Assembly: GCA_049515895.1 (NCBI GenBank)
Contig: JBEKTQ010000020.1
Span: 11,387 to 75,386, forward strand
From: Candidatus Bathyarchaeia archaeon
GTDB lineage: Archaea > Thermoproteota > Bathyarchaeia > Bathyarchaeales > Bathycorpusculaceae
DNA: 64,000 bases
Direction of reading: 5' to 3'
Under the pieces are notes generated by a model. That model saw nothing but the letters and a program-made list of their open reading frames with translations, had not been told where the DNA came from and did not search any database. Shown here one piece after another: positions 1,948 to 30,122 of the stretch; within the stretch, counting starts at the first letter, position 1; every line of letters begins with the position of its first letter. Made by a program: the position numbers and the translations under genes.

Positions 1948-2328
1948 TTGCAAAGAGTGTGCGCAATGGCTCCAGAAGCGCCTCTAACCACGATGGAGGT
2001 CGTATGTCAAGTTGCATCTGAGAACCTTGGTTGTAACGGTATTTTAGGACACGCAGAGTCGCCGCCTATTGAGGAGTGGTACAAAATGACCCGAAAATTC
2101 GATAACGTAGTAGCACTATGTGGACCTGACGTGAAAACTATTTTGGATGGTCCTAAAAAGAAGATTCTTGAAATGTGGAAACGGCAGGCAAAAATATTTG
2201 CACAGTATCCCACACAAGGATTTAGAACTAAACATGCATTAGGCTTTGATCCTACCACACCACTGGAAAACATGGAATATACAGTCAAGGCATATCTTGA
2301 AACCTTTAAGATACCGCTACCAGCGTAA
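1948..2328 (+). pseudogene. 5'-truncated paralog of the UroD/MtaA-family protein at 25563-26834
   Basis: PEAP/PEGP, EEWYKMTRKFDN/DEWYNNTRKYDN, QYPTQGFRT/KYPTQGHRT and DPTTPL/DPTIPL align only to the last ~120 aa of that protein. Confidence 0.75.
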
Positions 2329-2439
2329 ATCAGAAAAAATACAATCAAGAATTTTTTTCCTTTTTTATTGTAAACTTCTCGTACCTTAGTGTGGCGCGCT
2401 TAAGCTCTAACCAAAACAAAAAGAAAAAAAGGCGCTTGA

Positions 2440-3744
2440 TCATGGCTGTTGGATCGCTTTTAGAGTGTTTAGTGTATCCTCAAGGATGGTTAGTACACCG
2501 TTAAAGCCGATTAACGGTCGAAAAGTCAAACTGACTTGATCATAGTAGGGGTATGTGAATGGGATGAAACCGAATTTAGCGTCAGGAACCCCTCTTGATA
2601 CTCGATCTTCAACATTGCTTCCATAAATCAGGTCAGGCTTCTTATCGGACAGTGCTTCGCGTATGTCGTATTGATCTGGGCTATAAAGTATGGTTGTATC
2701 TAAAGAGTTTTCAGCAATGTATTGGTTTAGCAGTTTCTGGTTCTCGGGTCCAACTTCTCTTAAGCCAATGACATCAGGGTACAACCCCAAGTACTTATGA
2801 AGGAAAGATATCAACGGCACAGCTGTGGAGGAGTCACCAAAGTAGCCAAATCTTATACCTCGCAGACCACCCATCAAAACAGATATCCGGTCAAGTGTAC
2901 GATAACACTTCATCTTCACCTTATTAGATTCCTCATTAATCATTGTTTTGGGCAAATTGAAAAAATCTGCAATCTTTCCGAACCAGATCTCAGAGGAAAC
3001 GAAACCGTAAGGTGAAGACTCTTTAATGCCCATGTATGGGGTGCCATAGTCATGTTCAAGTTGCTGTGCTATTGTGTTGCCATATTCCTCGTATAGGACA
3101 ACGTTGAGCTCGGCTCTATTTGCCATTTTAAGGTTCTCAAGGGTTTCTCCAGCGCATATTTTGGAGATGACTTTTATGCCTATTAGTTCAAGTGTTCTTT
3201 TGATTTCGGCAGTGTCGCTTTCCCAGTTGTACTGAAAAATGTTCGCTCCGATCAAGTTCACACTTTTGGGGATTTTTGGGCCATCATTTTCTATTACTGC
3301 TTTCAGTATTTCGTTCGATGCTCTCTTAAAGCCATCAACGAAGGTTCCCGTGAAACAGGAGCTTTCAATCGGAACGGTCTTGTATTTGGGAGAAGATTTT
3401 TTTAGGATAGCAATGAGATCGTCCCCGATTAAAGAAGTTCCGGGAGAGTTAATTATGCCTACGAGGTCATAATCGAAATTTGATATCTGATTAATTGCGG
3501 TTGTAAGTTTTTCTTCTGCACTGTTAACATAATCATATTCATCCAGAAAGGTACTGGGCACTCGCTGAAAATAGATGTCAGTGAAATATTTATCCAATCC
3601 AAGCGGTGTAGTCTGGGCATCCTGTATTCCCGTAAGATAAGAAAGATAAGTTCTGCAGCCATTAGGACCATTAACTAACGCGGCGGAGTTCTTTATGCCT
3701 TCAAACGCTGTAACCGCTCCAGCGAGAGAGTCAGGTCTATGCAT
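2440..3744 (-). CDS. Nitrogenase component-1-like oxidoreductase subunit (NifK/NifN/BchB-like)
   Basis: GAVTAFEGIKNSAALVNGPNGC, SLIGDD, VNLIG, GFNGVLTILE. Likely start is ATG at 3744, overlapping the upstream stop. Confidence 0.85.
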   Translation of the reverse strand: MHRPDSLAGAVTAFEGIKNSAALVNGPNGCRTYLSYLTGIQDAQTTPLGLDKYFTDIYFQRVPSTFLDEYDYVNSAEEKLTTAINQISNFDYDLVGIINSPGTSLIGDDLIAILKKSSPKYKTVPIESSCFTGTFVDGFKRASNEILKAVIENDGPKIPKSVNLIGANIFQYNWESDTAEIKRTLELIGIKVISKICAGETLENLKMANRAELNVVLYEEYGNTIAQQLEHDYGTPYMGIKESSPYGFVSSEIWFGKIADFFNLPKTMINEESNKVKMKCYRTLDRISVLMGGLRGIRFGYFGDSSTAVPLISFLHKYLGLYPDVIGLREVGPENQKLLNQYIAENSLDTTILYSPDQYDIREALSDKKPDLIYGSNVEDRVSRGVPDAKFGFIPFTYPYYDQVSLTFRPLIGFNGVLTILEDTLNTLKAIQQP

Positions 3745-5959
3745 TGAGATTGAAAAGTTTTCGGTCATATTTCCAGCCTTCACTAAAGGGTACTTTAAGT
3801 CTCGTTGTCCATTTGCGGACGTATTCCATTCCACTCAAGAAGCCGTAGGATGGACAGAACGGAAAGACATCGTGAATGATCTTGGTATTTGTCAGGTTTT
3901 TAGGCATGAAATTGTACAGAACTAGGTCTGGCTGATGTTCCAGAATGTCTTTTTCTCGGTTATCAAAAGGGTAATCGTTGACCACTTGCACTTTATCCGC
4001 AAATCGTGAGCAAAAGTTCTCGGTCTCATAATAAAATTTTGATACACACACCTTTTGCACGTTTGCATGCAGATCAAGCAGGGTCGCAATTAACCAGTCT
4101 ATGTATATGACGAAGCCGAAGATCATTACTTTTTTAGCTTCCCAGAAGGGTTGGTAATGAGCGATCTGAGCATCATACTTAAGTCTGGCTTGATTGATTA
4201 ACGTTTCAGCTTCGCTTTCCCGGTGGAACATCTTTCCCAATGCCCTTGTAAACTCTACTGTTTGCTCAAAAGCCAATGGAAGTGGAGCCTTCAAGTATGG
4301 AACGTTGAAATCCTTATCAAAGTAATCTAAAAGATTTTGAACAACTATTTCGTTGGTCGCGGGGATATTTACGGTTGCTAATTTAAAGTTCTTGATCGAT
4401 TGCACAGTTGTTTTTCTGATGAACCTGCAGTTAATCGTGAGCTCGAGAGCGTTAAGAACGTTTGTTAATTCGTTAAAGTTCTTATCGGCAACCGTGGAAA
4501 GCCCTTGTTCACCGATGATGTTTATCATGTCGCCGCTAGGAGTTAGGTTTCTGTTGATAAAATGTTCAGCAATAATTTTGTAAGAATTTTGGACACCCGC
4601 ATTGAAGTCACCGCTCATAGCACCGTCGCTTTTAAGATCAACAACGTCCAAGCCTTCTTTTCGCAGCTGCTCAATTATGTGGGCTGAGTCTTCTCCGATT
4701 ATGCCTGAGGGACAAGAAGTAATCACAAAGGTGACAGCTGGCGAGACACGTTTGTTCGCGTCCAAGATTACCTGTTTTAGTTTTTTTTCAGCGCCAAAGA
4801 TCACTTCTTTCTCGCGCATATCGGTGCAAACTAGGTTCGGCAGGATCGTTTTTTCAGATGGTTGAGGAGTATTCAACGTGGTGTAAAAAGTATTGAATGC
4901 ACAAGCTATAGGCGAATCCATAACGGCTACTGCATCCTCGATTTGGCTGACAACAGCATAAGCCCCAGCCAGTGAGCAGCCATAAAGAAGCGCCCTCGGT
5001 TTTAAGGAAGTAACCTTTGCGCTGGCCCAATCAATACTGGTCTCTTTAGCATCTTTCACCGGATCGCATGTCTGGCAATCAGCCGTTTTCAAATTTTTTT
5101 TGACGCTATAGGTATTGGGAAAATTTTTTCTTACGGGTTTTTTGCAGTAGCAGAATTCGCTGATGAAGTCTTCAAGCGCTGAATCCTCCATAGGCGTTGG
5201 AACAACAGGAGTCTTGTTTTGTTCGATTTTCTGGGCTAATGACCGATAAATTCCTGCCAACTCAGAGTTAGGCGCATATTCAATAACGGTTTGCGATTCA
5301 AGCTCAGCCTGTTGAACAATTTCGCTTCGAGGGATAAAAGCAACCATTTCTGTTCCGAGTTTTTGTGCAAAAGCCGCGATTAGTTCACGCTCTTTTTTGG
5401 TACCCCTTTCATTGCCGATTATGCCAGCCAGTTTGCCTTTGACTGAAGAATGACTTCTTAAGCCTTTAGCAATATTATTAGCAGCGTATAAGGAAGCTAA
5501 TTCGCCTGAAGTTACAATGTATATGGATTGAGCAAAACCTTCGCGCATGGGAACGGCAAAACCGCCACAAACCACATCGCCTAAAACATCAAAAAACACG
5601 TACTCAAAATCAGACATGTTTAAACCTTGATTATTGAGCAGGTTAATCATCTGGATAATGCCTCTTCCGGCACAGCCAACACCAGGTTCTGGACCTCCGG
5701 CTTCAATGCATTTGGTGCCTTTGTACCCAGTTAACATAACATCAGCAAGTTTTACCGTATCAGAATGATTTAATTGTTCAAGAACAGTAGCTTGCTGAAA
5801 ACCGCCTAGCAGTAATCGTGTAGAATCATGCTTAGGGTCACAACCTATCTGCAGTACTTTGTATCCTTTCTCCGCTAAGGCAGCAGAAACATTTGAGATT
5901 GCAGTAGATTTTCCGATACCTCCTTTACCGTAGAAGGCAATTTTAACCATATCGCTCAT
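3737..5959 (-). CDS. NifH-like reductase fused to a NifD/NifE-like component-1 domain
   Basis: N-terminal GKGGIGKS, GCDPKHDST, GGPEPGVGCAGRG, DVLGDVVCGGFA; C-terminal YGCSLAGA, SPIAC, TSCPSGIIGED. Confidence 0.92.
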   Translation of the reverse strand: MSDMVKIAFYGKGGIGKSTAISNVSAALAEKGYKVLQIGCDPKHDSTRLLLGGFQQATVLEQLNHSDTVKLADVMLTGYKGTKCIEAGGPEPGVGCAGRGIIQMINLLNNQGLNMSDFEYVFFDVLGDVVCGGFAVPMREGFAQSIYIVTSGELASLYAANNIAKGLRSHSSVKGKLAGIIGNERGTKKERELIAAFAQKLGTEMVAFIPRSEIVQQAELESQTVIEYAPNSELAGIYRSLAQKIEQNKTPVVPTPMEDSALEDFISEFCYCKKPVRKNFPNTYSVKKNLKTADCQTCDPVKDAKETSIDWASAKVTSLKPRALLYGCSLAGAYAVVSQIEDAVAVMDSPIACAFNTFYTTLNTPQPSEKTILPNLVCTDMREKEVIFGAEKKLKQVILDANKRVSPAVTFVITSCPSGIIGEDSAHIIEQLRKEGLDVVDLKSDGAMSGDFNAGVQNSYKIIAEHFINRNLTPSGDMINIIGEQGLSTVADKNFNELTNVLNALELTINCRFIRKTTVQSIKNFKLATVNIPATNEIVVQNLLDYFDKDFNVPYLKAPLPLAFEQTVEFTRALGKMFHRESEAETLINQARLKYDAQIAHYQPFWEAKKVMIFGFVIYIDWLIATLLDLHANVQKVCVSKFYYETENFCSRFADKVQVVNDYPFDNREKDILEHQPDLVLYNFMPKNLTNTKIIHDVFPFCPSYGFLSGMEYVRKWTTRLKVPFSEGWKYDRKLFNLNA

Positions 5960-6022: not shown

Positions 6023-7210
6023 TTATGCAGGGCTGATTATTCTGCTCATCAATTCTGGAAAATCCAAAATGTTGTCAACAGTAACCATTTGACATCCTGA
6101 ATCAGCCAGCAGTTTACTCCCGTCTTTATAATAATGTTCGAATGGTTTAAACCTGAGAAAGGTTATCCGAACATCCATATTCTGCATTTTAGTGATTTCG
6201 TCCAGTGATGCCTCGACATCTTCTGTTTCAAAGCCCATGTCAGAGAAAATTAGGCAAAAGTTGGCTTGATTACAACCTCCTTGACTGAATTCTGTTCTCG
6301 CCCATTTGACCGCTTGGTGAAGGTTTGTGCCTCCCGAAGACTCCATTGATAGTAGCTTATCAGTTATTTTCATTATGTCTTCTTTGACGCCAAATCTTTT
6401 GATTACATCAAGTTTATCTGAAAAAAGGGAAATAGCGCTTTGATCGTCTCTTGGCAAGCCATGTACAAGAATTGATCCACAGACCGCGCTGGAAACAAGT
6501 ACTCGATAATCGAAACTAGCGCTCATATCTTGAAGATATAAGACGTTTCTTCGTTGTCTTCTGACTTCCCGGGTAAGAAAGTCCTCGTACGAGAGCTGAC
6601 GCAGGTCTTTTCCATCGGCCATTGCGTTTTCCAGGGATAGCTCAAAATCAATTGCTGAAGAATCATCATTACCCGGCATGTACTGACGAACTGAGTAGCC
6701 TTTTTCCGGACCGGTACCGGAAACGTAGAAATTGTTAATGAAGTGGCGAGCATAATACATCCCTGTTTTAGCCAAAGCTTGTCTCGCTCTGGCTAACAAA
6801 GCCTTCTTTTCTTCTTCGTCGTACTCATCTCGATTTTTAAACCAATCATTGAGCACTTTTTCGTCGCCGTCCTTACCAGTTATGGCTTCGACTAGCTGAA
6901 CTATTACATCCTTAAATTTTTCTTCACGTGTATAAGCGAGGTAACTATAAGTTTGAACTGCCAAGGATTCCGCTTCAGATCTTATTTCTATATGTGATGT
7001 GACAACTGCGGCTTCAACGTAATCTTGTTGGTTCAAAATACTCTTTTGTCTCATCTGCTTTGCCATTAATAGTTTTGCGATCGCAATTGGTTGCCGTGAG
7101 CTAGGTTTGAAAGCTTCAGGAATAATTTGTGAACTGCGAATTGCGCCGCAGAATTCGCCGGCAAACTCTACTGGATCAACATTTTTGCTTGAACTCAATT
7201 TTTCTCTCAC
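6023..7210 (-). CDS. vWA (MIDAS) domain protein with N-terminal AAA-lid-like domain
   Basis: DMSAS, GGTNL and IFSD motifs. Probable GTG start at 7210. Lies downstream of a MoxR gene. Confidence 0.85.
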   Translation of the reverse strand: MREKLSSSKNVDPVEFAGEFCGAIRSSQIIPEAFKPSSRQPIAIAKLLMAKQMRQKSILNQQDYVEAAVVTSHIEIRSEAESLAVQTYSYLAYTREEKFKDVIVQLVEAITGKDGDEKVLNDWFKNRDEYDEEEKKALLARARQALAKTGMYYARHFINNFYVSGTGPEKGYSVRQYMPGNDDSSAIDFELSLENAMADGKDLRQLSYEDFLTREVRRQRRNVLYLQDMSASFDYRVLVSSAVCGSILVHGLPRDDQSAISLFSDKLDVIKRFGVKEDIMKITDKLLSMESSGGTNLHQAVKWARTEFSQGGCNQANFCLIFSDMGFETEDVEASLDEITKMQNMDVRITFLRFKPFEHYYKDGSKLLADSGCQMVTVDNILDFPELMSRIISPA

Positions 7211-7211
7211 G

Positions 7212-7493
7212 TTAGTTAGATGTATTTTGTTTGGCCAATTTTCTAATGGTGTCTTTGGCAATTTCTTCTGCAATTTTTTGAACTCGGGGGTAGGATGTCA
7301 CAACGGCAGCATCTACAAAGTCAGCTTCGAGTAGCTCACGGTTTTTGATGTATTTTGCTGAAAGAAGCCTCGCAATTGCAATGGATTGTCTGGTGCTTGG
7401 AGCAGCAATTTCTTTAACTTTCTCGAGCTCACGAAAGCTCGCCACAAAATCTGCCGCGAATTGCCCAATTAAAGCATGTGTGTCTACTTGCAC
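7212..7493 (-). CDS. Small protein paralogous to the N-terminal domain of the adjacent vWA protein
   Basis: PSTRQSIAIARLLSAK...DFVDAAVVTS vs PSSRQPIAIAKLLMAK...DYVEAAVVTS. Tightly packed between moxR and vWA genes. Confidence 0.8.
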   Translation of the reverse strand: MQVDTHALIGQFAADFVASFRELEKVKEIAAPSTRQSIAIARLLSAKYIKNRELLEADFVDAAVVTSYPRVQKIAEEIAKDTIRKLAKQNTSN

Positions 7494-8407
7494 GTTAAAC
7501 TCTTCCTTATAAGACCTTTGAGTTTATTTTCCTTCCATCGGGCATTACGTTCAGTTACGGATCCAAGAAGTGATTGATATGCGATGTCGACAAGAACAGA
7601 ATCAGTTAGGAGATCCATCTCGGCATAACGCGACGCTATTCGAGCAATCGAAATGCCAGTTCTTACAGAAACAAGCTTTGAGAATTCTTCGCTTTGCCTG
7701 GACTGATCAATAATGTTGTAAATTTTCTGCATCGTCTCAGGATCAAGCTTGTTTTCGGGGGTGTTAGCGGCGATGATTTTGAGTTCAGTTTCTTTGGTAG
7801 GATATGATAAGCTTATCCAAACATGAAGACGGTCCCTTAAAGCTTCAGAGATTCTGTGAGCACCAGAGAATTCGTAGGGATTGGCCACAGCTATGAAAAC
7901 GAAGTTATCGTTTGCCCTAATTTTGCCAAGTCTGGGAATATACAGCGTCTTCTCTTCAAGAGGCTCCAAGAAACTATTTTGGCAAAACTCAGAGGCTCTG
8001 TTTAGTTCTTGTGCAACAAAAACTCCGCCGCCAACCATCGCAAGCAATAAAGGCCCGGGCTCGAATGCCTCCATACAGTAGCCTTTGCTAACCAGAACTG
8101 CAGGGTTAAAGGTCCCTATGAGATGACTTGGACTCATGAGTTCATCAAAAAATAATTCATAAAATGGACGCTGAGTATCATATGCGAATTTCCTAGCCAA
8201 AAGCGATTTGCCCACACCGGGTGGACCAACAATTATTGGAGTTAGTCTTGCTGAAACTGCATCATCTAAAAGTTCATAAGCTTTCTTGTATTGCCCGTCT
8301 AAAACAATTTTTACTTCAGAAGGTCTGGAAGCTATTTGGCGAGCAAATTGTTCTTTGAACTCTCTGGTGCTGTCGCATTGATTTTCTGTCAATCCATTTT
8401 CCCTCAT
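7484..8407 (-). CDS. MoxR-family AAA+ ATPase
   Basis: Walker A GPPGVGKS, atypical Walker B FVAQELNR, AVANP, SEALRDR. Confidence 0.9.
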   Translation of the reverse strand: MRENGLTENQCDSTREFKEQFARQIASRPSEVKIVLDGQYKKAYELLDDAVSARLTPIIVGPPGVGKSLLARKFAYDTQRPFYELFFDELMSPSHLIGTFNPAVLVSKGYCMEAFEPGPLLLAMVGGGVFVAQELNRASEFCQNSFLEPLEEKTLYIPRLGKIRANDNFVFIAVANPYEFSGAHRISEALRDRLHVWISLSYPTKETELKIIAANTPENKLDPETMQKIYNIIDQSRQSEEFSKLVSVRTGISIARIASRYAEMDLLTDSVLVDIAYQSLLGSVTERNARWKENKLKGLIRKSLTCK

Positions 8408-8440: not shown

Positions 8441-8689
8441 TTAGGGGTAAAGTTTCTTTTTAATTAGATAGCTTTGCGTTTTTTTAAGTATCTCGCCCTT
8501 ATCGATTACGCATTTTTCTTTATCAGGGCAGCCGTCACATATTGTTGTATCAGTTGTCACCTCAAAAAGTCGCACACCGCTCATTGTTAATGAATTGTCT
8601 GAGGGTATTACGCTTGTGGCTATGTTAATGCCATAGCACATGTTGATTTCTTTGCCGTTTAAACCGTAGACTTTTCCAAGTTCTTTCAA
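8441..8689 (-). CDS. Small Cys-containing hypothetical protein
   Basis: Fills the operon gap on the same strand; CDGC...C motif. Confidence 0.55.
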   Translation of the reverse strand: MKELGKVYGLNGKEINMCYGINIATSVIPSDNSLTMSGVRLFEVTTDTTICDGCPDKEKCVIDKGEILKKTQSYLIKKKLYP

Positions 8690-8738: not shown

Positions 8739-10400
8739 TTACCACGCTTTCTTCCATGGAGCAAACTCTAAATCGTCAAATCGAAATACTTTTGCAGGAC
8801 AGGTCGACTCACATTTTCTGCAAACTTGGCCAGTGCAGCTCTCACTAGATACTCGTATCAGATGTTGTCCACTGTTTTCTTCAACCCTGAGTGCCTGTGA
8901 CATACAATTCTTTTCGCATATTCCACACCCTGTGCATCCTTCAAAAGTTGCATTCAAAATAATGCCGGCATGCTCGGTTATGTGTAAACCCTTTGGCCCA
9001 AAGTCCGCGATATCTCTGATAACTACTTTATGCACCTTAGCCTCGGTTCTTTGCTCAGGATAACTTGGAACCCTAAATCTCTTTGCAACAAACATTCTTT
9101 TTTCAGGCGTTAAACCATGTTCCCAATGGTCCATTTCAATAATGTATGCTTTCTTGAAAGTTTCGTCTTGGATGAAGGCAAAATATGTTGGCTTCATTGA
9201 ATCAGCCATTTCCTGCATTTTGTCAAGGCATTCTGGATCCACAGCGCAGTCGTTTGCCATAGCTAGGGAAGTGTTTCCAACTTGGTATATGTCGCTGACT
9301 GTAGGCAATGCTAGACCCATTTTTTGCGCTTTCACAGCATCCACATATGTTCCGCTTGCCCCACAAAGATACATGGATTTAATGTCTTCGAATGCTACTC
9401 CGCTTTTCTCAACTAATGCTGTATGTCCAGCTTTGAAAGCGGCAAAGCAACGGGTCGAATTTAAGTAGTCTTTTGGTGTGAAAACAATGTTTTGGTTTTT
9501 AGTTATGTGAAGGCAATGATCTGGCGTCTTTATATATGGAGGTAAACGTTGTAGCAAACCAGAATCGAAGCCTGTAGCCATTGTTGCAATGGTTCCTGTC
9601 CCAGTTATTCCTCTTGGTTCAAAATAAGTCGAAAGTTTCTCTTGCACTTCGCCCGTCTGAGAATTTGCAGTGAAGCTGTCTTGAGAAATCATGTCGTCGT
9701 TAAGAACTTGCATTTTCCAGTTGCCATTTTCCAATAGTGTTATATCGGAAATCGCCCCAGGCGATGCTAAGACACCTTTGTCTATTTCGCCACCTTCAAT
9801 GGCAGGCCCCGCTGCACATGAACCGGTATATAGTGTATCTCCGACTTTAAGTCCAATTTCAGCGTTTGTTCCGTAATCAGTGACCATACACGGCTTTTTT
9901 TGATCAAGAATTCCTGATTTGATGATCATTGCTAATGCGTCTGCGCCAATTTGCTGTTGAATAGTTGGAGGAATAAATACTTCAGCTTCAGGATTAATGG
10001 CTAAACCTAAGGAGCCGGCATCCATAACAGTAACTCTTCTATCGAGCCTTTTAACGCCAAGTCTCCGAAGCATATTGTCTCCGCCAAAAACTAGATCGCG
10101 AACTTCCATGCCTTGAAAAATTGACATTTGCGTTGGGTTTCCGCATAGAGCCATACGTTTTACAGCTTTAAGGTCAATTTCCAAAGAGTTTAGCAAAGTA
10201 TTTATTGTGTCTGTAATGATGCCATGAGCTACCGCCGAGCCTGCTTTGACTGCAAAGTGCAGATGGTCAATAACATTACTTCCAGGAAGAGGATTATGCA
10301 GAGATATGGCTGTTGATATTATTTTCTTGGTCTCGGCATCCAGAGCTTGTAGCCGGACGCCGCTGGTTCCGATATCTAAGCCAATTACTAACTCCGTAAT
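8739..10400 (-). CDS. ramA: Corrinoid protein reductive activase (RamA-like; ASKHA plus C-terminal 2x[4Fe-4S])
   Basis: Frame extends 5' of the track ORF to GLDIGTSG...HNPLPGSNVIDHLHFA; DYGTNAEI, AAGPAIEG, CTGCGICEKNC, CTGQVCRKCESTCP. Start appears non-canonical (about 10397-10412). Confidence 0.88.
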   Translation of the reverse strand: MTELVIGLDIGTSGVRLQALDAETKKIISTAISLHNPLPGSNVIDHLHFAVKAGSAVAHGIITDTINTLLNSLEIDLKAVKRMALCGNPTQMSIFQGMEVRDLVFGGDNMLRRLGVKRLDRRVTVMDAGSLGLAINPEAEVFIPPTIQQQIGADALAMIIKSGILDQKKPCMVTDYGTNAEIGLKVGDTLYTGSCAAGPAIEGGEIDKGVLASPGAISDITLLENGNWKMQVLNDDMISQDSFTANSQTGEVQEKLSTYFEPRGITGTGTIATMATGFDSGLLQRLPPYIKTPDHCLHITKNQNIVFTPKDYLNSTRCFAAFKAGHTALVEKSGVAFEDIKSMYLCGASGTYVDAVKAQKMGLALPTVSDIYQVGNTSLAMANDCAVDPECLDKMQEMADSMKPTYFAFIQDETFKKAYIIEMDHWEHGLTPEKRMFVAKRFRVPSYPEQRTEAKVHKVVIRDIADFGPKGLHITEHAGIILNATFEGCTGCGICEKNCMSQALRVEENSGQHLIRVSSESCTGQVCRKCESTCPAKVFRFDDLEFAPWKKAW

Positions 10401-10408
10401 TATTCCCT

Positions 10409-10894
10409 TCAGTCCGGCTTGATTGTTACTTCCGTTTTCAATTCTATTTTTGTCCCTGCCTGCAGGGCGCGCAAGGCGAAACTGTATGACTTAACAAAGT
10501 TTCCGCAGCGAATGGCTTTCTCCTTGTTCGCTTCGCTATTTGTTGTAACGTAAATTATTGCATTAACATTGTCTAAGGAGTATCCGCCGACCATAGATGA
10601 TTTAACTTCCGCCTCAATATTTACTTTTAAGTCGCTTATTTCAAGACGCATACGTTCTTTAGCGTACAAGAATGTAGTTAGAATGCAGCCGCCAAAGCCA
10701 TTAAAGAAAATTGAACAAGGACTTGGCAAATCTCCTTTTCCTCCAAATTCCGTGGGCTTATCCAGACTTAGAGTATATTTCAAGCCTTGAACAGAATCTC
10801 CGAAACGACAGTTTCCACCGGTTTTTTTGTCCCAAGCCACTTCTGCAAGATATTTTAAATCGCTCGGAACGGCACTTTGAATTTTAGCATTCAT
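10409..10894 (-). CDS. OsmC/Ohr-family protein
   Basis: DKPTEFGGKGDLPSP...GGC pattern and size. Confidence 0.8.
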   Translation of the reverse strand: MNAKIQSAVPSDLKYLAEVAWDKKTGGNCRFGDSVQGLKYTLSLDKPTEFGGKGDLPSPCSIFFNGFGGCILTTFLYAKERMRLEISDLKVNIEAEVKSSMVGGYSLDNVNAIIYVTTNSEANKEKAIRCGNFVKSYSFALRALQAGTKIELKTEVTIKPD

Positions 10895-17919: not shown

Positions 17920-18614
17920 TTTGCTCGCTTTTCGGGCTTTTTAGGACTTGTCGTTATGTTAAACCCAACCAACAAGGTTCCAAGTCGGACGTCTTCCATG
18001 GAGAGATTAAACGTCTTCTTAAAATACTGATCAACTGACCGGGAAGGCCAACCACATGTCAAGTCTTTAATCCCATCGGTGTTTTCCAACCCCTTCTTAA
18101 ATCCGTCATGTGGAAGCGAGAACGGAAGCGTTGTGAACTTCACCGGTACACCTCTCTTACCTCTTAGTTTATACGTGTAGATTACGAATGGCCGTGAGCT
18201 CTTCCCGGTAAATAAGTAGCCTGGCTTTCCCCTAATCTCTTCCAACTTTACTGGGTCAGATATTTCTTCGCCGACGATTTCGCCGTTGGCCTTAAGGAGT
18301 ATTGTCGGATCTCTATACTCAAAGGTCTCGTCGTTAGTTATGAGAAGTACGACATCTCTTGTTAAGACTTCCTTTACGCCTTGATTTTCGATGCCTGCGC
18401 CGAATTGCACGAGTTTACTTTCTTCAGCAGTTTCCAACTCAAGTACTTTCTTTCGTTGGGAATCATCGAGCTCTTGTAAAATTGAACAAACACCCTTGCA
18501 TTCCTTTACAATAGAACAGACTCTTTCAGTGCATTTGGCAGACGTCAAATCGGCGCGACGGCCACTTTTTGTTTTTCTATTGTCAGTCTGATTTGTTTTA
18601 GTTGACAATTTCAA
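17916..18614 (-). CDS. Hypothetical protein
   Basis: 232 aa ORF overlapping both neighbours by 4 nt. Confidence 0.7.
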   Translation of the reverse strand: MKLSTKTNQTDNRKTKSGRRADLTSAKCTERVCSIVKECKGVCSILQELDDSQRKKVLELETAEESKLVQFGAGIENQGVKEVLTRDVVLLITNDETFEYRDPTILLKANGEIVGEEISDPVKLEEIRGKPGYLFTGKSSRPFVIYTYKLRGKRGVPVKFTTLPFSLPHDGFKKGLENTDGIKDLTCGWPSRSVDQYFKKTFNLSMEDVRLGTLLVGFNITTSPKKPEKRAK

Positions 18615-19681
18615 GCTACCTTGCCTATTGCTTTGACTATTGCTGTTATGAAATCTTCTGGTGAAGCGCCAGGGGTTGTAACATTTCCCTTAGAGTAGAA
18701 GGAGGTTACAGCTTGACGAACTGATGTCTCATCAGCTCTGACTCCTCTGAGCATGGCTTCAAGGGCGACTATTGCTTCTACAGGATGCATTAGATAGTCA
18801 CCTGTTATCATTATCTCTATTATCCTGTTGTCAGTAATGTAAGCGTTTATTCTGATTACTCCTTTTTTGGCTTTGTGAATGTATGTTGCGTTGACTCGTT
18901 TGAACAAACGTGGGTTAATGTTCCATGTGTCTTGCTCGAACCTTTCATCAAAGACTGTGGGTTCGAGCTCTCTATCTGTCAAATCCCCTTCGAGAAGAGT
19001 GATATTCAACGCTTTTTCAAATCCTGTTCGAATAGCCTTCTTTATCTGGTCCAAACTAAACGGATCCTTGCCGGATTTCAAAGTCTCTTTATTTATCCAA
19101 GTAATTCGATCTTCGATCTTTGTTAAGCCTTTGTCTTGAAGTTTCTCTTTGGGAGCCTTTATCAACAAAGCCAATGTTGGAAGATCTATTTCGGTGGTGA
19201 TGAAGCCATGTTGAATTATCATTCCAAAACTCCTGTGCTGAGAACTGCCAGAGAACTTCTTCCCTCCGATCAGAACGTCGTTGATCGGGACAAAAGTTGC
19301 ATCTAGCCCCAATTCCTTAAGACCGAGGGTAACACCGTTGCAGATTACTTTGTAGGTTTCCTCAACATTTTTGGGCATTGATTTGCTCCTTTCGTCTGCA
19401 ATTATTGAATATGCCAAAACGGTCGGTGTAAGATATCCTGTTCCGCCGCCACCCATGCGCCGTATAATTGGAACCCCAAGTTCTTTGGCCGCTTGAACAT
19501 CTACTTCTTCATAGACGTTCTGGAAGTAGCCTAATGTAAGATACGGCTTGTCTGCCCTCCAAAGTAGTAAGGTATTCTTGACCTTTTTTTCAGCAACGGC
19601 TTCTTCGATGGCATGAAGAAAAGGAAGCTCTATCACGTCTAAATCAACAAATCTCCACTTATCCAAAGATTTCACGCTCAC
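18611..19681 (-). CDS. lplA: Lipoate-protein ligase (catalytic plus C-terminal domain)
   Basis: WRFVD, LGYFQ, RRMGGGGTGY, NDVLIGGKKFSGSSQ, C-terminal ITGDY. Confidence 0.9.
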   Translation of the reverse strand: MSVKSLDKWRFVDLDVIELPFLHAIEEAVAEKKVKNTLLLWRADKPYLTLGYFQNVYEEVDVQAAKELGVPIIRRMGGGGTGYLTPTVLAYSIIADERSKSMPKNVEETYKVICNGVTLGLKELGLDATFVPINDVLIGGKKFSGSSQHRSFGMIIQHGFITTEIDLPTLALLIKAPKEKLQDKGLTKIEDRITWINKETLKSGKDPFSLDQIKKAIRTGFEKALNITLLEGDLTDRELEPTVFDERFEQDTWNINPRLFKRVNATYIHKAKKGVIRINAYITDNRIIEIMITGDYLMHPVEAIVALEAMLRGVRADETSVRQAVTSFYSKGNVTTPGASPEDFITAIVKAIGKVA

Positions 19682-19828
19682 TCACAACTGTACGCAGCAA
19701 TCATTACACAGTTTAACTATTGCGGCCTTTAACATTCTTTTCATCATTTCTTGACCGAAACTTAAGGTTGCGCCTAAACATCTTATTTTCAGTTTCTCAT
19801 TGTCTTTAGAGTTAATAGAGTGTAGTAA

Positions 19829-19842
19829 GTTGCAAAAGCTAC
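19829..19842 (-). promoter_or_regulatory. Putative operator upstream of the lplA unit
   Basis: Minus strand reads GTAGCTTTTGCAAC, 11 nt, TATTAA. Confidence 0.65.
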
Positions 19843-19887
19843 AAACATGTTGAAACACACGCTAACCAAGTCACTCAGACATGCAGG

Positions 19888-20922
19888 TTATTTTAGTTGT
19901 GATTCGTCCACTGAGCAGCACATTATATCGTTGTATGATTTGATGTCGAGTCCAAGATTCCGGGCTGTTCGAAGTGAATTTTCTGTAGGAATTGCCAATT
20001 TGCCAATTCCAGCCCGGATAGCCAGCTCGTCTATCTTTTCACGATAGTCTTTTCCAGGTCGCACACAACCCAGCGAGACGGAAGTGTTTGGAAACATCAA
20101 ATTGGCAATCGAAATGACCTTTGCTACATCCTCAGGGGAAGAAGGAAGAATATCAGCCATCGCTGTCTCTTTGGTAGGAATAAGAACCACAATGGCGATT
20201 GTAGATACTTTAGCATGTGACACTATCTCGAGAGCTTTGGCTTCTCCTTTTAATTGTCCAAAGTGAAGTCCGACACAAATATGAGGAGAAATATTTGGAA
20301 TTCCTGCAGCGTTCAGTGCTGACAGAGTTTTTGAGTAGTCATCAGGAGTAATTTCAACACCATAAACACCTCGAGTGGTTTCAGCAGATCCAACAACGTC
20401 GAGCAAGGCAATGTCTAAGCCAGCCTCAACGAGCATCTTTGCTTTTTCGTAATCTACTGGACCCGTATGAGCAGAGATAATTAAGCCTGTCTCTCGCTTG
20501 ATTTTGCGTATCGTGTCTGCAAATTGATCCAATGGAATAGTCCCGTCTTTTCTGCTTCCTCCGCTTAGAAGCACGCCTGGAGCATGGTTTGCAGCCAATT
20601 TTTTGCAGACTCGAAGCAGTTTTTCAGGATCACTCGCAGGAAGCATGTGCCTCAAGTAATGTTGACTGCAGTGCTTACAGTTTAGACTGCAGGATCGACC
20701 CGTAATAGATACAGGCTGGAAAGCTTTATGATATACAGTAAGGGTCTTACCAGTTTTTTTGTCTGAAACATGTCTAGATTCAGATAATAATTCGGGGAGT
20801 TGATCGTTGCAAATCGACATTAGCAGTTGGGCTTCATCGCCATTAATAGGCGTGCCTTTGTGCGCTTTGTCATGTATTTGGCTTAAGTCTTGTTTTGTCA
20901 GATCAGGGAACTCCCAGGTCAA
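19888..20922 (-). CDS. lipS1: Radical SAM lipoyl synthase component, LipS1-like
   Basis: CSLNCKHC, C-terminal GCVR and CC motifs. Confidence 0.8.
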   Translation of the reverse strand: MTWEFPDLTKQDLSQIHDKAHKGTPINGDEAQLLMSICNDQLPELLSESRHVSDKKTGKTLTVYHKAFQPVSITGRSCSLNCKHCSQHYLRHMLPASDPEKLLRVCKKLAANHAPGVLLSGGSRKDGTIPLDQFADTIRKIKRETGLIISAHTGPVDYEKAKMLVEAGLDIALLDVVGSAETTRGVYGVEITPDDYSKTLSALNAAGIPNISPHICVGLHFGQLKGEAKALEIVSHAKVSTIAIVVLIPTKETAMADILPSSPEDVAKVISIANLMFPNTSVSLGCVRPGKDYREKIDELAIRAGIGKLAIPTENSLRTARNLGLDIKSYNDIMCCSVDESQLK

Positions 20923-20934
20923 AACATTAAGGGG

Positions 20935-21390
20935 TCATGGTTCGTCATAATCGCCGAATTTCTCTTTTTCCTCGTCAATTATAGTCTTGTAGTATTTGGC
21001 CGCCTTCTTAGAATCCATAAGTTCTTTCAGTTCAAGCTTCGGGTCATTCACGGCAATCACAAATAACCAGCCTTTGCCGTATGGCTCCTCGTTAATCATG
21101 TCCGGTTGCTTGTAGAGGGCATTATTTGTCTTAGTAACTTTCCCACTCAAAGGAGCATGAATCCTAAACACTGCCTTTATTGTTTCGAAAGAACCTATTT
21201 CTTCCCCCTGTTTCCTTTGATCCCCTTCAAGCGGCAAATCGACATGTACAATTTCTTTGCAGAGAGCCTCTCCAAGACTTGTAAAGCCAACTTTTGCTTC
21301 ACTTCCCGTTAGGTCTATCCACAAATGATCCTTGCTGTAGTATAGGTTTGGTGGAAAATTAAAGCCTTCAACTTTAACCATATATTTCAT
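20935..21390 (-). CDS. gcvH: GcvH-like lipoyl carrier protein
   Basis: YSKDHLW, ETIKA (lipoyl Lys), APLSG, PYGKGW. Confidence 0.9.
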   Translation of the reverse strand: MKYMVKVEGFNFPPNLYYSKDHLWIDLTGSEAKVGFTSLGEALCKEIVHVDLPLEGDQRKQGEEIGSFETIKAVFRIHAPLSGKVTKTNNALYKQPDMINEEPYGKGWLFVIAVNDPKLELKELMDSKKAAKYYKTIIDEEKEKFGDYDEP

Positions 21391-22367
21391 CTCTTTCCTT
21401 TTTTAGATTTTTTTCGTTCATGCTTTTCACTTTTTTTAATACTTATGGTTTGACCAACTTCAAGTTTGATTTGGCCGACCTTCAACGGGATGAGCTTGAT
21501 TTCGCAGACGTTGCCCAAACACAGCCTGCTGGAAATTCCCTGATATTCGAAATCGTTAACAGTTGTTTTGAAAGGGGTAATTTCCATCTTGGTTAATCCA
21601 TTAAGGCTTTCATTTACAGTCCCTATTTGTGTATGGTTAAGGTACACTGGGGAGCCAATGTTCATTTTCTCATTAGTCACCAAAGCTCCGTAACCTAGGA
21701 AGGGAATTCCCCCGTCAAGAAGCCCAAAAGTCTCGTCGACTCTTGCTTGTAAACCCGAAAAATTGCCTATAGTTGCCCAATGTTCAGGACTTGGTCGGAT
21801 AGTCGCGTAGCGAGCCTCCACCTTTGTCACGACGCCTGTCAAGTTCTCTTCAGCTTGGGTTTTTGGTGCAACAGGGCCTTTGTTGTCTGATTCATTTAGA
21901 ACCGAAAGGCGATGGGAACCTAGAGCCCTTAAGGATTCGTTAGGGTCGCGGAGTTCAACATGAATATGTGGCTCTACCCAGAAAGGATAATACCCACTTC
22001 GAATAAGCACAGCAATTTTTTCCCCGACGCTAACGCTTTTGCCTAATCCAACTTTTGGACATGCATGAATAATTTTCACGTATACTGAAGGGTTCTCGGC
22101 AGATTCAATGAGGGTCAGATACTCATAGATGGGGGGTTTATCGGAAAATGGACTGGGCGAGGAGTACTTCTTCACGTCTCTGACTATGCCGTTTACTGGG
22201 CAAGCAACCTCGTCGTTGAATTTGGCGCCAGCTGGATAAATATCCAATGCTCCAAACGCTCGATGTGCTGGATAAGGACTGCTACAAAAGGAAACGTAAC
22301 TCTCTTTCGGAGCATAAATTTTTACACCAAGTGTGCCTGCAACCGGAGTAAATATCGCCTCGCTCAT
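21387..22367 (-). CDS. Hypothetical protein with M23/LytM-like His motifs
   Basis: PAH...ALDIYP, CPVNG, IIH, PHIHVELR. Confidence 0.55.
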   Translation of the reverse strand: MSEAIFTPVAGTLGVKIYAPKESYVSFCSSPYPAHRAFGALDIYPAGAKFNDEVACPVNGIVRDVKKYSSPSPFSDKPPIYEYLTLIESAENPSVYVKIIHACPKVGLGKSVSVGEKIAVLIRSGYYPFWVEPHIHVELRDPNESLRALGSHRLSVLNESDNKGPVAPKTQAEENLTGVVTKVEARYATIRPSPEHWATIGNFSGLQARVDETFGLLDGGIPFLGYGALVTNEKMNIGSPVYLNHTQIGTVNESLNGLTKMEITPFKTTVNDFEYQGISSRLCLGNVCEIKLIPLKVGQIKLEVGQTISIKKSEKHERKKSKKGKR

Positions 22368-23392
22368 TTTACACCGGCTCCTTTTGAAACGTTGACCTGT
22401 TTCTTTATCTCCCTCAACTCTTCCTCTGAAGGAAGGACAGGAAAATTATAAATCTTCTTTTCAGGAGTCTCATTAGCGAATGGCCGGTTGCAGTCAGGAC
22501 ATCCTGATGTAAGGAAAGGTTCACCGTGAGCGATTGTCTTCTCCACCTCTTCTTTGGCTATTCCGAAATCTTTGATTTCGCCAGATTCGTTGAATAGCAT
22601 TTTTTCTGCTCGAGTTAGATTTTGGTAAATTAGGTAGTTAGCTAATTTTATCCGTCGATAACTCTCAATTGACGGAGGCTGACCGCCCGCCAACCGTGTG
22701 CCGGCAATAGGGGTGAAAGCGAAAAGCGCACTGTAAACACCCTCATCGTTAAGTTTCGCCAATAAATCCACTGCTTCATGCTCAGTTTCGCCTAAGCCCA
22801 CCATCAAATGTGTGCCGACGTTGCCTTTGCCCATTATTTCGACCGCGTCGTGTATCGCTTTAAGGTGGCTTTCCCATCTGTAAGGACCTGCAGCCTTAGC
22901 GCCTTTAATATCATCAAATATTTCTTCGTTCGCCGCATCCAGAGGAATTATTATTTTTTGAACACCACTGTCCCTTAGACGCTTAATCTGCTCCGCCGGA
23001 ACTGAAAAAATAGAGACTGATATTGGCGCGGCAACCTCGGCATTCAATCTGTTGACCACCCAGAGCAATTCGTTCATGAGGTTAGAATAATTCAGGGTTT
23101 GGATGCATATCCGTTTAATGAATTTGCGTTTAGCCGCTTTTTTCAGCCGAGTGATTACCAATTCCGCATCGTATGGCAAGTACAGCCCCCTTGCGATCTT
23201 GTCAACCTTAGCTTCAGAAGTTTTCGCTTGAGCACAAAACTTGCAGTTGGCGGCACATCTGCCAGGGTAGTAAGTCTGTAAATACGCTGTAGTTGGAGCA
23301 TTATCGCGATTCATAAAAGCCATTTCAAGCCCTAAAATAACTGCAGTACCGATGGAAACACGTATTTTTTTAACAGGTTGATTGAGTGTCAC
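22364..23392 (-). CDS. lipS2: Radical SAM lipoyl synthase component, LipS2-like
   Basis: CAANCKFC and C-terminal TSGCPDCNRP. Confidence 0.85.
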   Translation of the reverse strand: MTLNQPVKKIRVSIGTAVILGLEMAFMNRDNAPTTAYLQTYYPGRCAANCKFCAQAKTSEAKVDKIARGLYLPYDAELVITRLKKAAKRKFIKRICIQTLNYSNLMNELLWVVNRLNAEVAAPISVSIFSVPAEQIKRLRDSGVQKIIIPLDAANEEIFDDIKGAKAAGPYRWESHLKAIHDAVEIMGKGNVGTHLMVGLGETEHEAVDLLAKLNDEGVYSALFAFTPIAGTRLAGGQPPSIESYRRIKLANYLIYQNLTRAEKMLFNESGEIKDFGIAKEEVEKTIAHGEPFLTSGCPDCNRPFANETPEKKIYNFPVLPSEEELREIKKQVNVSKGAGVK

Positions 23393-23395
23393 TTC

Positions 23396-29586: not shown

Positions 29587-29640
29587 GTTGGCATCAACTT
29601 TACCACAAAAAACTTTTACAGCGCCCCTAGCTGCGATTGC
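29587..29640 (-). repeat. Imperfect copy of an internal gcvH segment (29941-29993)
   Basis: gttggcatcaactttacca...ttttacagcgcc.ctagct occurs at both places. Confidence 0.75.
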
Positions 29641-30122
29641 TAGAGACCCTTGTATTCTCCACCTGTTATATCGTCCTTTGATTTTTCTGCTTCTTTCTTG
29701 AACCAATCTACAGCAGCGTCGCCGAAGAATATGTTCTTTAACTCGGCCTCGAGGTTGGATGGCTTTATAATACATAGCCACCCTGCTCCATATGGATCAT
29801 CTTTAAACGCGTTTGCTCCTCGTTTTCGAACTTCTTCGTTTACAGAAATAATTGTCCCAGACACTGGAGCAACAATCGGTCCGGTATACTTTATTGACTC
29901 TAATATCCCAAGCTTCTTTTTCTGAATTAACACTGTTCCAGTTGGCATCAACTTTACCATGAAGATTTTTACAGCGCCTCTAGCTACAATGTCATCAAAG
30001 CCTACACGGACATTTCCGTCATTCTCTTTTTTAGCCCAAACATGCTCATTATAGTATAAGTCTGGTCGAAACTTGAAACCGAAAACTTCTTCCACAGACA
30101 TCAATCTAACCTCATTTCGCAT
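29640..30122 (-). CDS. gcvH: GcvH-like lipoyl carrier protein (second copy)
   Basis: EHVW, ESIK (lipoyl Lys), APVSG, DPYGAGW. Confidence 0.9.
   Translation of the reverse strand: MRNEVRLMSVEEVFGFKFRPDLYYNEHVWAKKENDGNVRVGFDDIVARGAVKIFMVKLMPTGTVLIQKKKLGILESIKYTGPIVAPVSGTIISVNEEVRKRGANAFKDDPYGAGWLCIIKPSNLEAELKNIFFGDAAVDWFKKEAEKSKDDITGGEYKGL

Follow-up and report, generated by a model that had tools for sequence, protein, structure and literature searches.

A NifH–NifD/E-like fusion protein and its beta-type partner in a Bathyarchaeia archaeon: a nitrogenase-like pair predicted to lie outside the characterised families

The stretch of DNA considered here, called the window throughout, is 64,000 nt long and belongs to a Candidatus Bathyarchaeia archaeon (GenBank assembly GCA_049515895.1, contig JBEKTQ010000020.1, positions 11,387 to 75,386 of the forward strand). 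Two overlapping genes on its minus strand encode, respectively, a protein in which a NifH-type Fe protein is fused to an alpha-type (NifE/NifD-like) component-1 domain, and a separate beta-type partner. Here, I show that this pair is a genuine, intact and uncharacterised non-diazotrophic member of the nitrogenase-like (NFL) proteins.

The gene pair

The two genes, their domains and the sites discussed below are as follows.

3737..5959, minus strand: NifH–NifD/E-like fusion gene, 740 aa from the ATG at 5957-5959, stop TAG at 3737-3739
5153..5944, minus strand: NifH-type Fe-protein domain, fusion residues 6-269 (Fer4_NifH, E 1e-106, Pfam)
4979..5152, minus strand: flexible linker between the Fe-protein and alpha domains, approximately residues 270-327
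3797..4978, minus strand: alpha-type (NifE/NifD-like) component-1 domain, residues 328-721 (Oxidored_nitro, E 1e-60, Pfam)
Alpha-domain sites, minus strand: C328 at 4976-4978, C353 at 4901-4903, C416 at 4712-4714, C511 at 4427-4429, T535 at 4355-4357
2440..3768, minus strand: beta-type partner gene, 442 aa from the ATG at 3766-3768
Partner sites in 464-aa numbering, minus strand: C60 at 3655-3657, D35 at 3730-3732
2411..2435, minus strand: oligo-T run directly 3' of the partner stop, read from the sequence

A database protein identical (100%) to the fusion, P0001, has 737 aa and begins at the second ATG (5948-5950). The partner reading frame is open to a GTG at 3834 (2440..3834, 464 aa); the ATG at 3766-3768 was taken as its start because the database homologues of the partner have 442 aa, and the partner gene and the end of the fusion gene overlap by 32 nt. 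In the longer numbering the Oxidored_nitro match of the partner spans residues 37-458 (E 7e-64, Pfam). An earlier note, written from the sequence alone, had described this pair of open reading frames (ORFs) and quoted short motifs from it, all of which are present: YGCS, SPIAC, TSCP and VNIPATNE in the fusion, and PDSL, GPNGC and SPGT in the partner.

The Fe-protein domain carries the P-loop GKGGIGKS, the switch II motif DVLGDVVCGGF and both [4Fe-4S] ligands, C96 (5672-5674) and C131 (5567-5569). The linker that follows it varies in sequence and in length, with 33-87 residues (median 54) in 92 fused homologues, and the first 30 residues of the AlphaFold2 (AF2) model of the alpha domain have a predicted local distance difference test score (pLDDT) below 50. 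In the window the first part of the linker (~5065-5152, minus strand, residues ~270-298) contains four Cys, as CxC plus CxxC, which are not kept even in the closest homologues.

Seven same-strand ORFs, from a RamA-like gene (see below) to the partner gene, follow each other with every gap or overlap at or below 72 nt, and the oligo-T run is likely an archaeal terminator marking the end of an operon. The ~770 nt between the partner gene and the thermosome gene, at 1668-2439, hold only two overlapping ORFs on opposite strands, 1948-2328 (plus) and 2007-2348 (minus), neither of which has a family match in Pfam (for 1948-2328, also at a loose threshold).

Cluster and cofactor ligand positions

Ligand columns were read from HMMER alignments to solved NifD and NifD/NifEN and from a MAFFT L-INS-i alignment with annotated references, namely Rhizobium NifD, NifK, NifE and NifN, the plasmid-borne BchN, BchB, BchY and BchZ of Roseinatronobacter, the MAR-type locus of R. 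hungatei, and a CfbD verified by its gene context. C328, C353 and C416 of the fusion (740-aa numbering) align with NifD Cys62, Cys88 and Cys154, and C60 of the partner aligns with NifK Cys95 and NifN Cys44. The other two beta-subunit columns are occupied in the partner by D35, located 25 residues upstream of C60 at the position of NifK Cys70, and by P131/G132. At P-cluster columns 1/2/3 the residues are:

Fused alpha domain: C/C/C
NifD, NifE, BchN, BchY and MarD-like proteins: C/C/C
CfbD: N/C/C
Partner: D / C / P or S
NifK: C/C/C
NifN: S/C/A
BchZ: G/C/S
BchB: P/D/C

This distribution is a family trait. The three alpha-domain Cys are invariant in 92/92 fused homologues of 700-800 aa, together with the P-loop, the switch regions and both NifH cluster Cys, and C60 is Cys in 63/63 rows of the partner family; the claim that the fused domain keeps three cluster Cys and its partner only one is thus borne out by alignments and family counts alike. 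The first position of the partner family is Asp in 59 of the 63 rows (Asn in one, a gap in three, Cys in none), while the third is Gly in 57/63 and never Cys, with a Cys one residue earlier in 9/63. The pair has, therefore, the "3 Cys + 1 Cys" pattern of the NifEN and COR interface clusters, the cluster itself being predicted. NifEN and BchNB had been named as precedents; for BchNB a small correction applies, the fourth ligand in BchB being an Asp rather than a Cys. This is the only departure of DPOR from the pattern, and it leaves NifEN and COR (BchYZ) as the exact precedents.

The cofactor site is a different matter. The Cys275 column, Cys in the NifD, NifE and MarD-like rows, is T535 in the fusion and holds a Cys in 0/92 fused homologues, as had been anticipated from the VNIPATNE motif, and the loop that bears His442 in NifD is a gap in 9/9 fused rows of the alignment. 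Neither the P-cluster nor the FeMoco ligand set is hence intact. With nitrogenase (Nif/Vnf/Anf HDK) the pair shares an Fe protein with P-loop, switch regions and the two cluster Cys (Av Cys97 and Cys132), but nitrogenase has six P-cluster Cys in addition to Cys275 and His442, whereas the pair has 3+1 and neither FeMoco ligand. The earlier proposal, an ATP-driven relative of nitrogenase that carries its Fe protein on a tether and does not fix N2, finds support in the intact NifH motifs, in the 3+1 ligands, in the lack of a Cys275 or His442 equivalent, and in the lack of a NifB match among the window ORFs of at least 150 aa; judged by its sequence, the pair would be unable to fix N2.

Two conserved residues had been overlooked in the earlier note, namely the Asp of the partner (D35) and a fourth, family-specific Cys of the alpha domain. 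The latter, C511, lies in an NCRF motif (C508 in 737-aa numbering) and is invariant in the 92 close homologues, and an equivalent was found in none of the reference families of the alignments. Among the 48 library representatives (clusters at 50% identity) that match the alpha domain at E<=1e-30, its column is occupied by Cys in 39, by Thr in seven and by Ala in one, with a gap in one. An obligatory metal ligand is argued against, since Thr or Ala stands at this position in 8/47 distant representatives, and a proton-donor or hydrogen-bond role is more likely; a replacement cofactor ligand was also considered, and is weakened by the same substitutions. The AF2 model places C511 close to where the strand before the one leading to the Cys275 position ends on its C-terminal side.

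Placement in the nitrogenase superfamily

Both proteins score far below the cut-offs of the NCBIfam equivalog models for component-1 proteins. The fusion obtains 88 bits on the nifD model (cut-off 654), and the score on nifK is 37 (cut-off 427); the nifE model, which is the top NCBIfam component-1 match for both, gives 113.2 bits for the fusion and 101.6 for the partner (cut-off 505.1). Scores on the BchB model are 70.2 (fusion) and 95.8 (partner) against a cut-off of 490, and those on BchN and BchL are 32 against 420 and 218 against 345, respectively. Nor does the pair nest in CfbCD: on the CfbD equivalog TIGR03282 (cut-off 268.4) the alpha domain reaches 38.7 bits and the partner 25.4, as opposed to 393.8 for the true CfbD of locus L058 (see below).

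The Fe-protein domain is less discriminating. It obtains 373.2 bits on the nifH model (cut-off 394.35) and 363.5 on the CfbC model (cut-off 402), on which the context-verified CfbC of L058 (cluster cfbCEDAB) reaches only 338.2; because a true CfbC scores below the fusion on the CfbC model, this domain alone cannot assign a function. Its identity is 54.7% to Rhizobium NifH, 50.8% to CfbC and 38% to BchL and BchX.

Phylogenies were inferred with FastTree (120 rows) and with IQ-TREE under LG+C20 (59 rows), without named sequences of Group IV-A (Nfa), Group IV-F (isethionate reductase, ISR) and Group VI. Alpha-type and beta-type proteins split apart in both trees. In the FastTree tree the fused alpha domains form a clade of 27 rows (FusD, SH-like support 89), which does not include the Thermoplasmata row L032_FusD, and the partners form a clade (PartK) with support 99. 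In the IQ-TREE tree the alpha domain of the window falls in a core FusD clade of 13 rows, all fused (SH-aLRT 99), and its partner in a PartK clade of eight rows, all partners (support 98), including those of two Thermoplasmatota fusions; the alpha domains of L032 and L070 are on long branches of unsettled position. In both trees NifD plus NifE, the Group IV NflD proteins with the R. hungatei MAR locus, and NifK/NifN make up separate clades, each with support 100, as do the short NFL proteins of Methanomicrobiales (support 100). The Bch proteins, with one reference sequence for each, are placed on long separate branches in both trees, and CfbD, when added, sits on a branch of length 3.26 with a placement support of 36 and at most 21% identity to any row.

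Structure comparison adds to this picture. In Foldseek, NifD, MarD and NifE resemble the AF2 model of the alpha domain (pLDDT 86.7) to a similar degree, the best TM-scores being those of NifE (0.69-0.70 by query, 0.72-0.73 by target), while the beta model (pLDDT 88.0) has its best TM-scores with BchB of DPOR (0.80-0.82 by query, 0.84-0.86 by target). A search of the ESM Atlas returned only other component-1 clusters, among them a mostly archaeal, fused cluster of 753 aa, and offered no hint of a function. As regards tree placement, then, the pair is outside NifDK, NifEN, MAR-type Group IV and BchNB/YZ, and by its sequence it would be a member of a nitrogenase-like clade distinct from nitrogenase, NifEN, DPOR/COR, CfbCD and MAR.

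Each of these systems resembles the pair in some respect. NifEN has the alpha 3 Cys plus beta 1 Cys arrangement in the same columns (NifN S/C/A, partner D/C/P), but NifE has at the Cys275 column the Cys that holds the L-cluster, which is lacking in the fused family; moreover, NifEN forms clades of its own (support 100, versus 99), its NifH is unfused, and a nif context is lacking in the window. The tetrapyrrole C=C reductases DPOR (BchLNB) and COR (BchXYZ), in which the tetrapyrrole is bound between the alpha and beta subunits, likewise join an ATP-driven Fe protein to an alpha/beta core that has a single [4Fe-4S] cluster at its interface and is devoid of FeMoco ligands, BchZ (G/C/S) being near the partner (D/C/P) and BchB being the closest structure to the partner model (TM 0.82/0.86, root-mean-square deviation ~3 A). 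They differ by a Fe protein only 38% identical, by the Asp at the second position of BchB, and by scores on the Bch models of 32-96 bits against cut-offs of 420-490; no photosynthesis genes are near the fusion pair.

In CfbCD the NifH-like ATPase is 51% identical and FeMoco ligands are also missing, and the Fe protein has been reported to stay bound to the catalytic subunit (PMC13474568); yet CfbD is a homomer of 363 aa with N/C/C and no beta partner, whereas the fusion has a distinct one. MAR (MarBHDK) and Group IV have the same overall fold and provide the best PDB sequence matches of the alpha domain (9d9u_A and 9fmg_A, E 9e-22). Nonetheless, both R. hungatei subunits (L018) are C/C/C at the P-cluster columns, the alpha subunit has a Cys at the Cys275 column, and the clade is separate (support 100); MAR has been described as using six Cys for its mar1 cluster and a Cys/His pair for mar2, and as needing MarB or NifB (PMC13753814).

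The Group VI NFL proteins of Elusimicrobia are described as having no FeMoco ligands, at most four Cys at the six P-cluster positions and no NifB, with a tetrapyrrole as proposed substrate; their NflH is ~40% identical to NifH and sister to Group V, and their genes are unfused and in a radical SAM context (Méheust et al., bioRxiv 10.1101/765248). Membership of the pair in Group VI is unlikely, given that ~40% compares with 55% NifH identity here, the two being set apart by this description rather than in a tree.

Family spread and previous mentions

The alpha-domain search of the protein library retrieved 979 representatives at E<=1e-3, 331 at E<=1e-10 and 48 at E<=1e-30. Among the last, 27 are at least 680 aa long with the match starting from about residue 300, and 24 have an intact P-loop; the remainder consists of fragments and six apparently complete stand-alone alpha proteins. 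Source names among the matches listed include Desulfocicer vacuolatum, Treponema primitia, Acidobacteria, Actinomycetota, Coriobacteriales and Bathyarchaeia, the last of which supply the closest named fused homologues. The nearest fusions to that of the window (P0002-P0008) are 60-65% identical. A scan of genome contigs with NifH motifs gave 80 loci, of which 77 have ordinary unfused nifH and three are fused (L001, L032 and L070), adding fusions in Bathyarchaeia, Thermoplasmata and Methanomethylophilaceae; these loci do not include the genome of the window itself. A fusion followed by a NifN/K-like gene is the arrangement common to the window and these three loci. Two library proteins of ~1080-1106 aa, P0060 and P0066, have two tandem NifH domains (~10-260 and 332-595) ahead of the component-1 domain, in effect an Fe-protein dimer within one chain that is also tied to the catalytic subunit.

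The fusion architecture has been in print since 2012. Dos Santos et al. (BMC Genomics 13:162, PMC3464626) mentioned, as 'data not shown', a fused NifH–NifE-like gene accompanied by a NifN-like gene in Archaea, Firmicutes and Deltaproteobacteria, filtered the fused sequences out before phylogeny, and reported a linkage to ABC transporters for related NifHEN-like genes. Gene order, fusion and taxa match those found here, and no difference is known from the published account. The ligand pattern, the clade status, the fourth Cys, the partner Asp, the AAA+/VWA linkage (see below) and the triple fusions are not in the main text of that paper, whose supplements may list fused genes. A gene of Ca. Methanomassiliicoccus intestinalis is labelled 'fused nifH/nifE' in Borrel et al. 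2014 (PMC4153887), where the label is all that is given. The words 'fused' and 'fusion' are absent from the available text of the 2026 Chem Rev review of NFL proteins (PMC13474568); 'fusion' denotes MarB-NflX in that of the 2026 MAR survey (PMC13753814), and PMC9447857 and PMC8890362 use both words only for NifB SAM-NifX, which is not a NifH fusion. A full-text literature search returned these two passing mentions (PMC3464626 and PMC4153887) and no functional study of a NifH–NifE fusion. The family is therefore broad but unstudied, and its absence from current NFL classifications follows from the removal of fused sequences in 2012.

Neighbouring genes in the window

Upstream of the fusion gene, the remaining five ORFs of the same-strand cluster are, in order of transcription:

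8739..~10412, minus strand: RamA-like corrinoid reductive-activase gene, ASKHA domain plus 2x[4Fe-4S] ferredoxin domain, first gene of the cluster
8441..8689, minus strand: 82-aa ORF, which may not be a gene
7484..8407, minus strand: MoxR-class AAA+ ATPase (AAA_5), 307 aa; AAA_5 E 1e-19, AAA_3 E 3e-13 (Pfam)
7212..7493, minus strand: 93-aa ORF between the AAA+ and VWA genes, a candidate gene
6023..7210, minus strand: VWA-domain protein, ~395 aa from the GTG at 7208-7210, frame open to 7273, 72 nt upstream of the fusion

The RamA-like protein scores 499.4 bits on TIGR04270 (Rama_corrin_act, cut-off 500), the match starting at model position 66. Its ORF is listed from a TTG at 10196, but the frame is open for 98 codons further upstream (10197-10493), where it meets a stop at 10491-10493 and contains none of the codons ATG, GTG and TTG; the 72 upstream codons nearest the gene match positions 3-67, the start of Raco_middle (E 0.005). 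Translation probably begins at a non-canonical codon around 10400-10412, just after the stop of an OsmC-like gene, so that 10412 is an estimate.

The best NCBIfam match of the AAA+ ATPase is GvpN (67.9 bits, far under the cut-off), and its PDB sequence matches are midasin, CbbQ and NorQ. For the VWA protein the VWA_2 match (E 5e-4) is under the Pfam cut-off, while its homologues, of which only 18 clusters were found, carry PF13519 and PF05762 (VWA_CoxE). The longest source contig of 4/18 of these clusters is of the same size as that of the fusion or partner clusters (63315, 48345, 33887 and 3053889 nt). No family match was obtained in Pfam, also at a loose threshold, for the 82-aa and 93-aa ORFs; the latter resembles by eye the N-terminal region of the VWA protein, and may be a small paralogue or a duplication remnant.

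Elsewhere, the gene content of the window comprises a thermosome, an Mvh-type hydrogenase, HdrABC, LipS1/S2 lipoate synthesis, a 2-oxoacid:ferredoxin oxidoreductase and an anaerobic ribonucleotide reductase, and looks like that of an anaerobic archaeon of non-methanogen type. No mcr, nifB, nifEN, cfb (including cfbA, cfbB and cfbE) or MarB-like gene was seen in the window, NifB being sought among ORFs of at least 150 aa. The lipoate cluster (18611-25222, minus strand) holds two LipS1-type genes, one LipS2-type gene, two lipoate-protein ligase genes and GcvH, and a second GcvH-like gene lies at 29640-30122.

Gene context at other loci

Locus L001, from Bathyarchaeia, has a Peripla_BP_2/FecCD/ABC importer upstream of fusion and partner, with translational coupling between the importer and the pair, and an ABC-2 exporter after them. 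In locus L032, from Thermoplasmata, an importer of the same kind is divergently transcribed. The best NCBIfam matches of both importers are BtuF, BtuC and 'corrinoid ABC transporter ATPase', those of L001 being all under cut-off. No transporter was seen upstream of the L070 fusion. A FecCD-type permease is within 10 kb of a NifH-like gene in 3/80 loci, that is, in the fused L001 and L032, and in L058.

The latter, from Candidatus Methanarcanum hacksteinii, contains a complete F430 cluster (cfbC-cfbE-cfbD-cfbA-cfbB, L058 3889-15196), which is divergent from a Peripla_BP_2/FecCD/ABC (BtuFCD-like) importer and from ChlI-/ChlD-like AAA+/VWA genes ('putative cobaltochelatase' model). Its CfbA is of double length (268 aa, two CbiX stretches), and its CfbC is under the cut-off of its model.

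Dialister succinatiphilus (L021, 9983-18612) encodes unfused NifH-like, alpha-like and beta-like proteins, the last two being C/C/C at the P-cluster columns. This set is directly followed by a 1316-aa CobN/Mg-chelatase large subunit and a radical SAM gene; the beta protein groups with one from Sporomusa termitida. In Methanoregula, Methanoculleus and other Methanomicrobiales (L004, L005, L009, L062 and L067), a NifH-like gene precedes a short alpha-like gene (350-406 aa) and a beta-like gene (374-403 aa). The four aligned rows, alpha and beta of L004 and L005, are C/C/C at the P-cluster columns; these short proteins form their own clades (support 100), with the beta clade near the partner clade, and the neighbours in L005 and L067 (ODP lactamase, PRK and TrkH) are uninformative.

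Proposed mechanism and substrate

With moderate confidence, the pair is best regarded as a two-component, ATP-driven, low-potential NFL reductase in which the Fe protein is tethered and the alpha/beta core holds a single cluster. In such an enzyme the NifH-type ATPase would dimerise and hold its [4Fe-4S] cluster between the two copies, and the flexible linker of ~55 residues would tie it to the N-terminus of the alpha-type subunit, itself paired with the beta-type (BchB/NifN-like) subunit from the overlapping downstream gene. One [4Fe-4S] cluster would lie at the alpha/beta interface, alpha contributing three of its Cys ligands and beta the fourth, which is the arrangement of NifEN and COR. 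Hydrolysis of MgATP in the tethered Fe-protein dimer would drive electrons to this cluster and thence to a substrate in the pocket of the alpha subunit, where nitrogenase keeps FeMoco; here the pocket would be free of cofactor ligands and marked by C511 (NCRF), E383, Y595 and W622 (740-aa numbering) and by D35 of the partner.

As to stoichiometry, since the fusion supplies one Fe-protein domain for each alpha/beta pair, an (H-alpha)2(beta)2 tetramer would form a single Fe-protein dimer, which would serve one half at a time, and the tandem-NifH forms would restore the canonical 2:1 ratio.

Metal-chelate importers and class-I-chelatase-type parts recur around this part of the superfamily, and for this reason a metallo-tetrapyrrole type of substrate is favoured. 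The MoxR-AAA+, VWA and RamA-like genes next to the pair in the window also point weakly in this direction. By analogy with DPOR, COR and CfbCD, the tentative and still rather uncertain proposal is that the compound reduced would be a metallo-tetrapyrrole or else an imported metal chelate akin to one, of corrinoid or porphyrinoid type, and in the subclade of the window the MoxR-AAA+/VWA pair could act as a chelatase-like or maturation motor.

Several observations weigh against this reading. First, a BtuFCD-like importer was not found in the window, and besides the window only two fused loci have readable flanks, L070 being 4 kb; the sample of loci is therefore small. Second, homologues of the AAA+, VWA and RamA-like proteins of the window number 0 among the 80 genome loci, so that their association with the fusion is confined to a subclade, in which conserved VWA–fusion linkage is suggested by matching contig sizes rather than by the linkage itself being seen, and one of the four matching contigs, of 3053889 nt, is genome-sized and says little on linkage. 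Third, MoxR-type pairs are not unique to the nitrogenase-like cluster, given that a second one lies at 58311-61072 (minus strand; AAA_5 plus CbbQ_C at 60050-61072 and a 572-aa VWA protein at 58311-60029), and the RamA-like gene may belong to a methyltransferase system together with the corrinoid protein at 26834-27547. Fourth, C511 is not universal, being Thr in L032, and its putative location at the rim of the cofactor pocket is read from the strand topology of the AF2 model together with the topology of NifD. Finally, Dos Santos et al. 2012 (PMC3464626) interpreted the linkage to ABC transporters as a source of metal for the assembly of a cofactor, and a simple-cluster NFL need not, by analogy with isethionate reductase, act on a tetrapyrrole; this Group IV-F enzyme is described as diverging, too, at the P-cluster and FeMoco ligand positions (PMC13474568).

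A more specific, and improbable, version of the tetrapyrrole proposal may still be worth stating. The fusion would carry out the reductive step of an undescribed metallo-tetrapyrrole pathway, either corrinoid/porphyrinoid salvage or the synthesis of a new cofactor, in strict anaerobes (Bathyarchaeia, Methanomassiliicoccales, some Desulfobacterota, spirochaetes); the MoxR-AAA+/VWA pair of the subclade would be the macrocycle-holding module in place of CobN/ChlH, and together they would constitute an ATP-driven 'reductive (de)chelatase'.

Alternative explanations

The alternative that survives best, though unlikely, is a small-molecule reductive lyase for nutrient acquisition which, in the manner of MAR or isethionate reductase but on a different imported compound, would cleave a C-S, C-O, C-N or C-P bond. 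It is in keeping with the MAR chains 9d9u_A and 9fmg_A being the best PDB sequence matches of the alpha domain, with ISR being likewise devoid of the canonical P-cluster/FeMoco ligand set (PMC13474568), and with most uncharacterised Group IV systems adjoining sulfur genes (PMC13474568; PMC13753814). In L001, too, an importer and an ABC-2 exporter bracket the genes, and phosphodiesterase and polyphosphate genes are close by. However, the importers beside the fused loci belong to type II (FecCD/BtuC), the cargo of their best matches being corrinoids, heme or siderophores, and neither a cysteine-synthase nor a methionine-synthase gene was seen in the window, in L001 or in L032. Moreover, the family does not fall in the Group IV clade to which the MAR locus belongs and, unlike the MarD-like proteins, does not keep a Cys at the Cys275 column.

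A reductase acting on a metal chelate has also to be set against a NifEN-like scaffold or maturase, building or inserting a metal cluster with the MoxR-AAA+/VWA pair as insertion chaperone. I infer the former from the data at hand and regard the latter as quite unlikely. The maturase would account for the 3+1 pattern being the same as in NifEN, for NifE giving the best TM-scores of the alpha model, and for nifE being the top component-1 model for both proteins. Families of CoxE-type VWA proteins and of NorQ/CbbQ-type AAA+ ATPases include metal-centre maturation factors, and the VWA homologues carry VWA_CoxE (PF05762) while the AAA+ protein resembles NorQ and CbbQ; in addition, metal transport coupled to cofactor assembly was proposed by Dos Santos et al. 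(PMC3464626). On the other hand, NifE keeps the precursor-holding Cys at the Cys275 column, which none of the 92 fused homologues has, the family is apart from NifE in both trees, NifB was not found in the window, and neither the window nor L001 or L032 shows an evident client enzyme.

A second CfbCD isoenzyme, that is, a reductive cyclase of F430 biosynthesis, is very improbable and close to refuted. The Fe-protein domain does score above the context-verified CfbC of L058 on the CfbC model, shares 50.8% identity with it, and the types of flanking modules are similar. Nevertheless, both component-1 proteins are far under the CfbD equivalog cut-off, CfbD is a single 363-aa subunit without the first Cys and on a very long branch, members of the family are present in organisms that are not methanogens (Desulfocicer vacuolatum, Treponema primitia and Acidobacteria, for example), and cfbA, cfbB and cfbE were not found in the window.

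Lastly, a working nitrogenase of unusual kind, which the NifH identity and the many homologues named NifH by their sources could evoke, has practically no chance, as the partner keeps one of the three beta-subunit P-cluster Cys, Cys275 and His442 have no equivalent, nifB, nifE and nifN were not found in the window, and the nifD and nifK scores (88 and 37 bits) are remote from their cut-offs.

Implications and calls of diazotrophy

Finding the substrate of the family would add a new reaction to the nitrogenase superfamily. Furthermore, a natural and permanent tether bears on the question, raised in the 2026 NFL review (PMC13474568), of whether the components dissociate in every turnover, and both the tethered and the tandem-NifH designs could guide the engineering of single-chain nitrogenase systems.

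The fusion is also a clean example of a nifH-like gene that is not to be scored as diazotrophy, and the earlier note had warned of false calls based on nifH. The warning holds in part. At least 34 homologue clusters, among the 120 matches listed, are named "nitrogenase iron protein/NifH" by a source, and the outer primers nifH4 and nifH3 have 0 mismatches in the fusion gene (5919-5935 and 5472-5488). Conversely, the inner primer nifH1 has two mismatches, nifH2 has no site within three mismatches in the fusion gene, and the score on the nifH model is below its cut-off. The risk is thus real for loose annotation and for first-round PCR, and smaller for nested PCR or curated models.

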